From: Escherichia phage vB_EcoM_KAW1E185
Sequence record: NC_054922.1
DNA: 64,000 nucleotides
Strand: one strand, 5' to 3'
Part shown: piece after piece, positions 38,840-45,888 of the stretch
How the letters are laid out: each line of letters starts with the position of its first letter
Numbering within the stretch: the stretch's first letter is position 1
Made by a program: the position numbers and the translations under genes
Notes under the pieces: generated by a model
Databases searched by the model: none
What the model was told of the DNA's origin: nothing
What the model saw: only the letters and a program-made list of their open reading frames with translations

Positions 38840-40009
38840 TTAAAAATATTTTTTAAAACTCATCATAACTTTATCATCAACGTCATTATCAATCTGTGCT
38901 ACAAGATAAGATGACAGTTCTACTTCTTGCGGTGCAGATTGAACATTATCAGAATTAAGATATTCACGAATCCAAGGATACGGATGTTTAACCGGAGCAT
39001 CAGTAATTGGGCATGGAAGACCACACTGTTTCATACGAGATACAGTTAAGTAATCAATAAAGCTCCACATGCTATTTGTATTTAATCCAGGAACATCGCC
39101 ATCTTTAAATAAATGAACTGCCCAGTCTTTTTCTTGACGGTTAACTTCCATGAAAATATCAACTGCTTCTTGTTCACACTCTTGAGCAATTTTAACCCAT
39201 TCATCACCATCAGTGCCAAGTTGAAGTTGACGAATAATATATTGGGTGCCTTTAAGGTGAAGCTGCTCATCACGTGCAATGAACTTCATAATCTTGGCAT
39301 TACCTTCCATGATTTCCATGTTCTTATGGAAGTTAAAGGTACATGCGAAAGATACATAAAAACGAATAGCTTCCAATGCGTTGATTACGTGCAGGCAGAG
39401 GTAAAGAGATTTCATTAGTGCTCGTTTAGTACATTCAACAACTTTGCCTAGCTCTTCTTTACGAAATCCTTCTGATAAAATTCCTTCATAATCTTCAACC
39501 GCATTCTGATATTCACGAGTCTTAACTAGAACGTCATCATAATAACGACCAATAGATTCAGCACGTTTCATGATAGCTTTATCTAATACAATCTCATCAA
39601 ATACCTTTGATGGATCAGTATAAAGATTTCGCATGATATGAGTATATGAACGACTGTGAATAGTTTCGCTAAAAGTCCATGTAGCAACCCATGTATCAAG
39701 ACTTGGGTCTGAAATTAACGACATAAGTACAGCAGACGGCGCACGACCCTGAATGCTATCCAAAAGTGATTGATACTTCAGGTTATTAGTAAAAATATCT
39801 TGCTGATATTGAGGAAGCTTGTTAAATTGTGCAGCATCCATCATCAAGTTTACTTCTTCAGGACGCCAGAAAAATGATAAAGATTTCTCAATAAGTTCTT
39901 CAAATACTCTATGCCGTTGAATATCATATCGAGCTAAACCCAATCCAGAACCAAAAAACATCGGCTCAGTCAAAATATTAACAGGGGATGTATTAAAAAC
40001 TGTACTCAT
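38840..40009 (-). CDS. nrdB: ribonucleotide reductase small subunit NrdB (uninterrupted)
   Basis: 389 aa single ORF, T4 NrdB about 388 aa. Confidence 0.93.
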   Translation of the reverse strand: MSTVFNTSPVNILTEPMFFGSGLGLARYDIQRHRVFEELIEKSLSFFWRPEEVNLMMDAAQFNKLPQYQQDIFTNNLKYQSLLDSIQGRAPSAVLMSLISDPSLDTWVATWTFSETIHSRSYTHIMRNLYTDPSKVFDEIVLDKAIMKRAESIGRYYDDVLVKTREYQNAVEDYEGILSEGFRKEELGKVVECTKRALMKSLYLCLHVINALEAIRFYVSFACTFNFHKNMEIMEGNAKIMKFIARDEQLHLKGTQYIIRQLQLGTDGDEWVKIAQECEQEAVDIFMEVNRQEKDWAVHLFKDGDVPGLNTNSMWSFIDYLTVSRMKQCGLPCPITDAPVKHPYPWIREYLNSDNVQSAPQEVELSSYLVAQIDNDVDDKVMMSFKKYF

Positions 40010-40647
40010 TTAGAATCCTTAAATTTACATTTATCATAATGCCATCTTAGAGCATTGCCTTTATTAACCTTCTTGCCACAATGCGGACAAGGCGGATACT
40101 CTATACTTTGCTTAGTTCTCAAAGAAATCAAATCACGAGTTTCTTTAGTATGAGGAACATCTCTTGTTGGAGAGATTGTACCATACATCGGATTAAGCAC
40201 GCCGACTTTAGCAGCAGCTATATTCTTTTTAGCTTCTTCGGTTTTAGGTTTTCTCATGCGAGCTAAATGCTCTTTGGTAAATTTCCTTCCTTTAAGAGCT
40301 CTACTTATCTTTTCCCTGGTTTCTATAGAAACTTCACGTCCTATAGCAGCTTCAGATAAACGTCGTCTACCTAATTCGTATAGTTGAGAAGAAATTTTAT
40401 ATGAGCGATTTTTACCAGTCAAGCACATTAAACCAAAAGCTTTCTTTAATCCTGGGGTGTCATATATTTTGCATAAAAGCCAATGAGCTATAAAATGCTC
40501 TCTACCTGTTAATTCAACTAAATTTTCTTTATCATCAGAACCTCCCATACATCTAGGGATTATATGATGAGTCTCTTTATATTCAGATAAAGGTTCCCGA
40601 GCCTGAGCTCGGGAAATTAGGTCATTATAGATTTTTTGATAATTCAT
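40006..40647 (-). CDS. free-standing HNH homing endonuclease (MobE-like) with NUMOD3-like repeats
   Basis: 213 aa; HNH core ETHHIIPRCMGGSDDKENLVELTGREHFIAHWLL; ETREKISRALKG and ETRDLISLRTK repeats; C-terminal CPHCG...H...C. Confidence 0.8.
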   Translation of the reverse strand: MNYQKIYNDLISRAQAREPLSEYKETHHIIPRCMGGSDDKENLVELTGREHFIAHWLLCKIYDTPGLKKAFGLMCLTGKNRSYKISSQLYELGRRRLSEAAIGREVSIETREKISRALKGRKFTKEHLARMRKPKTEEAKKNIAAAKVGVLNPMYGTISPTRDVPHTKETRDLISLRTKQSIEYPPCPHCGKKVNKGNALRWHYDKCKFKDSK

Positions 40648-42911: not shown

Positions 42912-43228
42912 AAGTCCTCAACTTGAAAATCGTCTTTAAACAATCGGTTAACTATATGAGCTATTATATCACCATGACACGGCTTTGGTTTACATGTGCA
43001 TCCTAGCCTCATTCCACGTAAAGGCTCTAAATGTGCTTTAGTTATTTCTCCGGATTTAATTCGACGTATAAAATCTTTTTTGAATAATTCAATGGCAGCC
43101 TCCCGGCTGCCAGCATCTTTACCGACGTAATTTCCCCAAAATGTACCGCGGTGAATATTAACATCAAAGTCGGATTTGTATTTATTCACTACCCGGCATA
43201 GACGGCCCACGCTGGAATAATTCGTCAT
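42902..43228 (-). CDS. hypothetical protein (nrdA.1-like)
   Basis: 108 aa ORF. Confidence 0.55.
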
Positions 43229-43445
43229 ATTGTTTTTCCGTTAAAACAGTAATATCGTAGTAACAGTCAGAAGAAGTTTTAACTGTGGAAATTTTATTAT
43301 CAAAATACTCACGAGTCATTTTATGAGTATAGTATTTTTTACCATAAATGGTAATAGGCTGTTCTGGTCCTGGAACTTCTAACTCGCTTGGGTTAGGAAG
43401 TGTAAAAAGAACAACGCCAGAAGTATCTTTAAATCGTAAAATCAT
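43182..43445 (-). CDS. hypothetical protein (nrdA.2-like)
   Basis: 87 aa ORF. Confidence 0.5.
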
Positions 43446-44302
43446 ATTGCCATTTTCCCTTTAATTGCTGGATGCGATTCATAATTTTCAAGGATAAAAT
43501 CTTTCGGTTTCATGTATTCAGTTAACCAGTAAAGCTGTGTTTCGGTGTCACAATTTCCAAACTCTATAGGCCAATCAATTTTAAGTTCACATAGTTCTTT
43601 AGGCTCACGACGTAAAATTTCTTTACATTGCTCAGTATGATTCATATAGATGTGAGTATTACCACCAGAAAATATCAAATCTCCTGGGATAAGATTACAC
43701 ATCTTAGCCACAATATGCGTCAAGGCAGCGTACGAGGCAATGTTGAATGGCAAGCCCAAGAAAACATCTACACTTCTTTGGTACCATTGTAAATCAAGAT
43801 AACCATTACGCACATTAAACTGATAGAACATATGACAGGGCGGTAATGCCATTTGATTGATTTCAGCTGGATTCCATGCTGAAACGATTTGACGTCGATC
43901 AGTTGGTAATTTTTTAATACGATCAATAGTTTCAACTAATTGATCCACACCACCGAAATCACGCCATTGTTTACCGTATATAGGACCAAGTTCACCACTA
44001 TGATATCCTAGGTCTTTAGCCTGGTTTTCATAGTTATCGTCCCAAATAGTTTTACCTTGAATAAGACTACCATGAGTGCGAAGACGTAAATCATTAACAT
44101 TGGTAGAACCGGAAATAAACCATAGAAGCTCAGCAATGCATGCATTCCAGGCGAGCTTCTTAGTCGTTACTGCAGGAAAACCTTTAGTTAAATCCCAGCG
44201 TAATTTAGTACCGAACAAAGCAATTGTTCCTGTGCCTGTTCGGTCATCGGTTTCATAACCATTTTCAAAAATGTCTTTAATTAAATCTTGGTATTGTTTC
44301 AT
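43442..44302 (-). CDS. td: thymidylate synthase (uninterrupted, no intron)
   Basis: 286 aa single ORF, T4 TS length; catalytic ALPPCH motif. Confidence 0.95.
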
Positions 44303-44346
44303 TTAGTACCTTATATAAATTATAATACATTTTATGAAGCTAATAA

Positions 44347-44694
44347 TTAATACGGTTTAGCATCAAATTTTCTCTCAATTTCAGGCGTGAAATATAATTC
44401 TTTACCGCGTTTGGAAAAGCGACCAATAATATGATAATTATTCTCATCAAACGTGATATTACCAATATCCATAGCTTTCAACCAAATATCGATATTTCTA
44501 TCCAGCTTTATGTCAAAATTCCAATACGGAGAACTATTACCGAAAATACTGCAAGCGGATTCAGTGAAACAACTGCTATAAATCTTGTCTTTAGGAACTA
44601 CTAATTGATAGACACCTTTAATAAACTGAGGACCCTGCCACTTTGGCTGTTTCGCGTCTTTTTCTAATAGAATAGGGTAATAATTAAAATTCAT
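44347..44694 (-). CDS. hypothetical protein between frd and td
   Basis: 115 aa from ATG 44694; no recognised family. Confidence 0.55.
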   Translation of the reverse strand: MNFNYYPILLEKDAKQPKWQGPQFIKGVYQLVVPKDKIYSSCFTESACSIFGNSSPYWNFDIKLDRNIDIWLKAMDIGNITFDENNYHIIGRFSKRGKELYFTPEIERKFDAKPY

Positions 44695-44714
44695 ATTTTC
44701 CGCCACGCGTTATT

Positions 44715-45544
<830 letters not shown>

Positions 45545-45555
45545 ATTATCTCCTA

Positions 45556-45888
45556 TTAAAAAGGATCAGGAACATATCCACTAGCTTTAATCATTTTAAC
45601 TAATGTTACCATTCCTTTGTTAACTGCTTGTGAGATTTCATCAAAAACTTCATCATTAAAAAGTTCTAGCACACCCTTCTGAACTTTTAATTTACAGCCA
45701 ACAATTTCGTCATCGCCTATAGTAAATTCATTACCGCCAATTCCACCGAAAAACTTAATTACCCCAGTTAACTGTCTTCCACGAGAATATGGGTCATGTG
45801 ATAAAGTAATATGAGTCACCCCAGGTACAGTTTTAAATTGACAGCGAATGTTTACTTGAGAAATTCCAGTTACATGAATGTCAGACAT
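45556..45888 (-). CDS. hypothetical protein (frd.2-like)
   Basis: 110 aa ORF. Confidence 0.55.
   Translation of the reverse strand: MSDIHVTGISQVNIRCQFKTVPGVTHITLSHDPYSRGRQLTGVIKFFGGIGGNEFTIGDDEIVGCKLKVQKGVLELFNDEVFDEISQAVNKGMVTLVKMIKASGYVPDPF

Follow-up and report, generated by a model that had tools for sequence, protein, structure and literature searches.

An uninterrupted td gene with an empty intron insertion site in Escherichia phage vB_EcoM_KAW1E185

The thymidylate synthase gene (td) of Escherichia phage vB_EcoM_KAW1E185 lies in a window of 64,000 nt of record NC_054922.1, which is the whole stretch of DNA analysed here, and runs without a break across the point at which the td gene of phage T4 is split by a group I intron. 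Based on sequence comparison, we propose with a probability of about 0.85 that this is an ordinary, functional intron-less td of an RB14-like phage, and that its insertion site is empty, carries no trace of an intron and is most likely still a usable target for the intron-encoded endonuclease I-TevI. Such a gene would be translated directly into a thymidylate synthase of 286 aa, with no RNA splicing step. Upon co-infection with an intron-bearing relative, I-TevI would be expected to bind around the insertion site and to cut 23/25 nt upstream of it, at CAAAG; once the break was repaired from the donor, the recipient td would contain the intron and, along with it, about 30 nt or more of donor exon 1. 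An intron-homing picture of this kind is textbook material, having been described for T-even phages two decades ago.

The td gene and its alignment to T4

The earlier note had described td as a single 286-aa ORF, and the ORF listing gives exactly the same limits, to which we add the strand (minus) that the note had left out (Table 1). Two plus-strand ORFs inside the td interval, of 54 and 60 aa, are mechanical by-products. The product matches the Pfam profile Thymidylat_synt (PF00303) over its full length (profile positions 1–266 of 266; E = 7e-96; 320.8 bits, with a cut-off of 24.3), and its top match among solved structures is T4 thymidylate synthase, 1TIS, aligned from residues 1–286 to residues 1–286 with E = 2e-171. 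Cys156 and its PCH motif are identical between the td product and T4 Td/1TIS, as is the substrate-binding block (YQRS...D.FLG.PFN). Cys156 is the catalytic cysteine of thymidylate synthases, and the part played by the residues of the substrate-binding block is likewise well established for these enzymes. A chance match is of no concern here, td being a full-length conserved enzyme gene.

Table 1. Features of the td gene in the window, and T4-type tracts in four intron-bearing relatives (tract positions are relative to the intron insertion site)
Feature	Position	Strand	Remarks
td, uninterrupted thymidylate synthase	43442..44302	minus	ATG start, 286 aa plus stop; ORF listing, Pfam PF00303, spliced T4 td, 1TIS
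Catalytic Cys156 codon (TGT) in PCH motif	43835..43837	minus	T4 Td alignment
I-TevI cleavage motif position (-27..-23)	43776..43780	minus	CAAAG here vs CAACG in T4
Approximate primary binding region of the I-TevI DNA-binding domain (-10..+10)	43744..43763	minus	Extent from PMC2988022
Empty intron insertion site	43753..43754	minus	td nt 549 (43754) / nt 550 (43753), codons Gly183 / Leu184; T4 has a 1017-nt intron with I-TevI
T4-type tract, U5	-28 to +1		
T4-type tract, G8	about -45 to +3		
T4-type tract, e11/2	about -24 to +9		
T4-type tract, Pu-Krd-SF4			Reaches much further into exon 1

The reference for comparison was T4 NC_000866, in which td is annotated as a two-piece join of 1878 nt with I-TevI inside; the annotation bears out the earlier note in that T4 td is split by a group I intron carrying I-TevI. 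The T4 gene was cut at the known junction, with exon 1 ending in ...TTCTTGGGT, the intron running from TAATTGAGGCC... to ...AACATAATG and exon 2 opening with CTACCGTTT. Explicit splicing assigns 549 nt to exon 1, 1017 nt to the intron and 312 nt to exon 2, the exons together encoding 286 aa. Against this spliced T4 td, the window td (861 nt in both cases) aligns with zero gaps, and 665 of 861 nt (77%) and 238 of 286 aa (83%) are identical. The gene thus has the full length of T4 Td, as had been claimed, and because the alignment is gap-free, the ORF is neither truncated nor fused with respect to the T4 exons. It is likewise continuous across the T4 insertion point between nt 549 and nt 550, which upholds its description as an intron-minus allele. 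Given the equal length, the gap-free alignment, the full Pfam match and the conserved active site, we reject the idea of a truncated, fused or otherwise defective td and give it virtually no credence. Rather, identity at this level to the crystallised T4 enzyme suggests that the Td of vB_EcoM_KAW1E185 is active in converting dUMP to dTMP. For annotation, the consequence is that td in this phage requires no exon joining.

The two genes share their length and active-site motifs, and in both the same codons hold the cleavage motif and the insertion site. They differ in that T4 has the intron and I-TevI, whereas the window has neither, and in one block, aa 241–265, which is unrelated in sequence but of equal length in both and is the sole strongly divergent block of the product. 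A tblastn search with T4 I-TevI at E ≤ 0.01 found no homologue in the 64-kb window, which is part of the genome; to our knowledge, I-TevI is known solely as the td-intron ORF. A search of the window with Rfam likewise gave no group I intron, and we discard this result as uninformative because the control scan missed genuine introns, those of T4 td, T4 nrdB and G8 td; the absence of an intron rests instead on the gap-free alignment. At the gathering threshold, Rfam is blind to these three introns, presumably on account of their large ORF inserts, and negative Rfam scans are unreliable for ORF-containing phage introns.

The I-TevI target site and its invaded counterparts

The recognition sequence of I-TevI is about 38 bp long; the enzyme binds 20 bp with the insertion site at their centre, cleaves at a 5'-CNNNG-3' motif, 23/25 nt upstream of that site, and is generally tolerant of substitutions in its homing site (PMC2988022). 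Within CNNNG, C1 and G5 are critical, and many central triplets make for poor or uncleaved substrates (PMC5009752). In the window, both of these bases, C-27 and G-23, are kept at the T4 distance, and the stretch from the motif to the insertion site has no indel. Both are also fixed by the protein sequence, since C-27 opens the Gln175 codon and G-23 is the middle base of the Arg176 codon. The central triplet is AAA in the window versus AAC in T4, and the codons at the cleavage site read CAA-AGA-AGT versus CAA-CGC-TCA. Across -30..+20, 13 of the 50 bases differ from T4 (-28, -24, -22 to -19, -1, +1, +3, +6, +9, +12 and +18), all of them synonymously; four of these differences make up the spacer at -22..-19, and five (-1, +1, +3, +6 and +9) lie in the 20-bp binding region, where the remaining 15 bases are those of T4.

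The I-TevI target is hence recognisable, with its critical C and G and their spacing kept, and the site itself is empty. It is also unmarked. Window bases are non-T4 at -28, within -24 to -19, and at -1, +1 and +3, so that no co-conversion footprint is present; with no T4-type tract, there is therefore no sign of past intron occupation. The earlier note had called this a naive homing site. The preserved C-27, G-23 and spacing, together with the intron-bearing counterparts of this allele type described below, lend that phrase indirect support and make it a reasonable reading of the window td, although the word "naive" itself stands as an inference.

What an invaded allele of this type looks like can be seen in relatives, for which the queries were chimeras of T4 intron ends joined to window exons. 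In about 59 records the 3' end of the intron is joined to a window-type exon 2, the distinctive 3' block included, and in U5 (AY262155), G8, e11/2 and Pu-Krd-SF4 the intron sits within exons that are 94–98% identical to those of the window. Scoring of all 196 sites at which T4 and the window differ showed the exons of these four phages to be window-type almost throughout, again with the divergent 3' block, except for a T4-type tract adjoining the intron (Table 1). What sets the four apart from the window is the intron (1016 nt; 445 nt in e11/2, with I-TevI largely deleted) and the T4-type tracts, neither of which the window has. In all four, the tract includes the cleavage site at -23/-25 and extends further into exon 1 than into exon 2; such an exon 1 bias of co-conversion has been ascribed to persistent binding of I-TevI to the exon II side (PMC2988022). 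These tracts have the appearance expected of I-TevI-driven homing with exon co-conversion. Mosaic intron-plus alleles could in principle come from ordinary recombination rather than from cleavage, but the repeated placement of the tracts around the cleavage site makes this less likely.

Some td introns in the group lack most or all of I-TevI, measuring 445 nt in e11/2, 320 nt in Shinka and 262 nt in PD112. All three retain intact intron ends and exons that join in frame to give a 286-aa ORF, and in several records with an I-TevI-deleted td intron the gene is annotated as a pair of separate "thymidylate synthase" genes. Across the relatives, then, one meets the empty site, the invaded site with its co-conversion tracts and the intron that has lost its endonuclease.

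Frequency of the intron-less allele and alternative explanations

The window td, used as a query, matched 661 phage records, 449 of them with td as one contiguous piece, and the T4 intron was found at ≥80% coverage in 197 records. An 80-mer across the empty site of the window is contiguous in 214 records, in 44 of them at ≥99% identity. All of these figures are rough, because GenBank/RefSeq duplicates and laboratory T4 variants are among the records counted. For the corresponding 80-mer of the T4 type, megablast, which needs a 28-nt exact word, was too insensitive, and the search was rerun in distant mode. The nearest contiguous empty sites to the T4 flanks are 91–92.5% identical over the 80-mer, and intron-less alleles closer to T4 occur in vB_SsoM_113 and pSs-1 (about 91–92%). 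Near-exact T4-type flanks were found solely alongside the intron, bar the T4 record AH001329.2, whose 100% full-length match is joined from two pieces that lie 220 nt apart in the record.

By td DNA, the closest relatives are vB_EcoM_R5505, teqsoen, Ozark and RB14 (99.3–99.8%), in which the gene is annotated simply as thymidylate synthase. In these members of Tequatrovirus, td is an uninterrupted 861 nt as in the window, and it has the same neighbours: frd, a small inserted ORF (RB32ORF229c-like), td, nrdA.2, nrdA.1 and nrdA. The differences from the window come down to a few point changes in td, such as the Gly183 codon at position -1, which is GGA in RB14 and GGC in the window. The 10-kb neighbourhood as a whole is 100% covered at about 96% identity by deposited genomes, for example slur02/04. 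Intron-encoded endonucleases are patchily distributed, a review having tabulated them in T4, T6, RB3 and LZ2 only, while RB14, RB15, RB18, RB26, RB32, RB51/70 and T2 are listed with none (Petrov et al., 2010, Table 5, PMC2993671). Because an intron-minus td is both the majority state and long documented, the noteworthiness that had been implied for it is not borne out: the intron-less td of an RB14-like Tequatrovirus is ordinary and already known.

The abundance of empty sites of this type, which persist in the 214 records counted above, might also be read as a sign that the allele is immune, with synonymous changes at the cleavage and binding sites lowering I-TevI cutting so that the site stays empty. 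We consider this unlikely. The differences in the homing site do reach the central triplet, the spacer and the binding region, and many CNNNG substrates go uncleaved (PMC5009752); for the CAAAG triplet of the window, no published cleavage data were found in the literature (PMC5009752 without its supplements). There is a mild synonymous excess at the site as well, with 10 of 17 codons changed there and 73 of 221 in the rest of td (Fisher p = 0.04), but it is unexceptional, since 41 of 235 sliding windows along td are equally or more diverged and Ser, Arg and Leu codon-family switches are also found elsewhere in the gene. Being marginal by the Fisher test and unremarkable by sliding window, synonymous divergence is unconvincing as a signature of escape. 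Resistance is further at odds with the general tolerance of I-TevI for homing-site changes (PMC2988022), with the two critical bases being held in place by Gln and Arg codons and with relatives in which the same allele type is found with the intron and with tracts that span the cleavage site. That the window/RB14-type site is partly resistant to I-TevI, with its synonymous codon choices kept by selection against intron invasion, we regard as quite improbable from the sequences compared; if it were true, selected partial resistance would help to explain why sites are empty in hundreds of phages despite a circulating mobile intron.

A precise secondary loss, in which this lineage would have had the intron at an earlier time and then shed it, appears very improbable. 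Loss is plausible as a process, given that the decay stage of the homing-endonuclease cycle is seen within the group in the td introns of e11/2, Shinka and PD112. However, no T4-type co-conversion footprint stands beside the insertion site of the window, although recombination with an intron-less allele would erase one, and the same empty site (≥99% over 80 nt) is common to 44 records. We favor an ordinary intron-less td that would still be open to homing, and vB_EcoM_KAW1E185 falls among the majority of T4 relatives that have neither the td nor the nrdB intron.

nrdB and the DNA around td

The nrdB gene is also uninterrupted (38840..40009, minus). A stretch of 600 nt that in T4 contains the nrdB group I intron and the I-TevIII relic is missing from the window, whose positions 39342 and 39345 the alignment places side by side. 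With td and nrdB both uninterrupted, the window thus lacks both of the introns known from this part of T4. Beside nrdB, a single ORF of 213 aa (40006..40647, minus) encodes, in the same frame, a MobE-like HNH homing endonuclease and NrdB.1. Identity to T4 MobE aa 1–127 is 61% for the MobE-like part, which also matches PHROG 655 (E = 1e-54), and identity to T4 NrdB.1 is 98% for the NrdB.1 part. In T4, mobE and nrdB.1 are two separate genes, whereas the window has the one ORF, which may be a fusion or may hint that T4 mobE and nrdB.1 stem from one longer endonuclease gene.

There is a sharp mosaic boundary between the 3' end of td (43442..43582) and nrdA.2 (43182..43445). Codons 241–265 of td are essentially unrelated to T4 DNA, with 7–9 of 30 nt identical per bin, and the nrdA.2 and nrdA.1 proteins next to td are 100% identical to those of T4. 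In the window the stop codon of td and the start codon of nrdA.2 share bases (ATGA), whereas in T4 the two genes are 20 nt apart.

On the other side of td, about 404 bp (44306..44709) are extra relative to T4 between frd and td, two genes that overlap in T4. This DNA contains an ORF of 115–119 aa (44347..44706, minus) that matches PHROG 1928 and has no Pfam match. It is the counterpart of RB14 RB32ORF229c, whose annotation in that phage reads "flanked by 9 bp repeat"; G8 and Pu-Krd-SF4 have an ORF of this kind, and T4 and e11/2 do not. About 516 bp more than in T4 (45316..45831) lie between frd.1 and frd, with two ORFs on the minus strand, one of 81 aa (45299..45544; PHROG 3183) and one of 110 aa (45556..45888; DUF7247/PHROG 3566). 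The small extra ORFs flanking td and frd were considered as free-standing endonucleases and rejected as such, in that they match families of unknown function.
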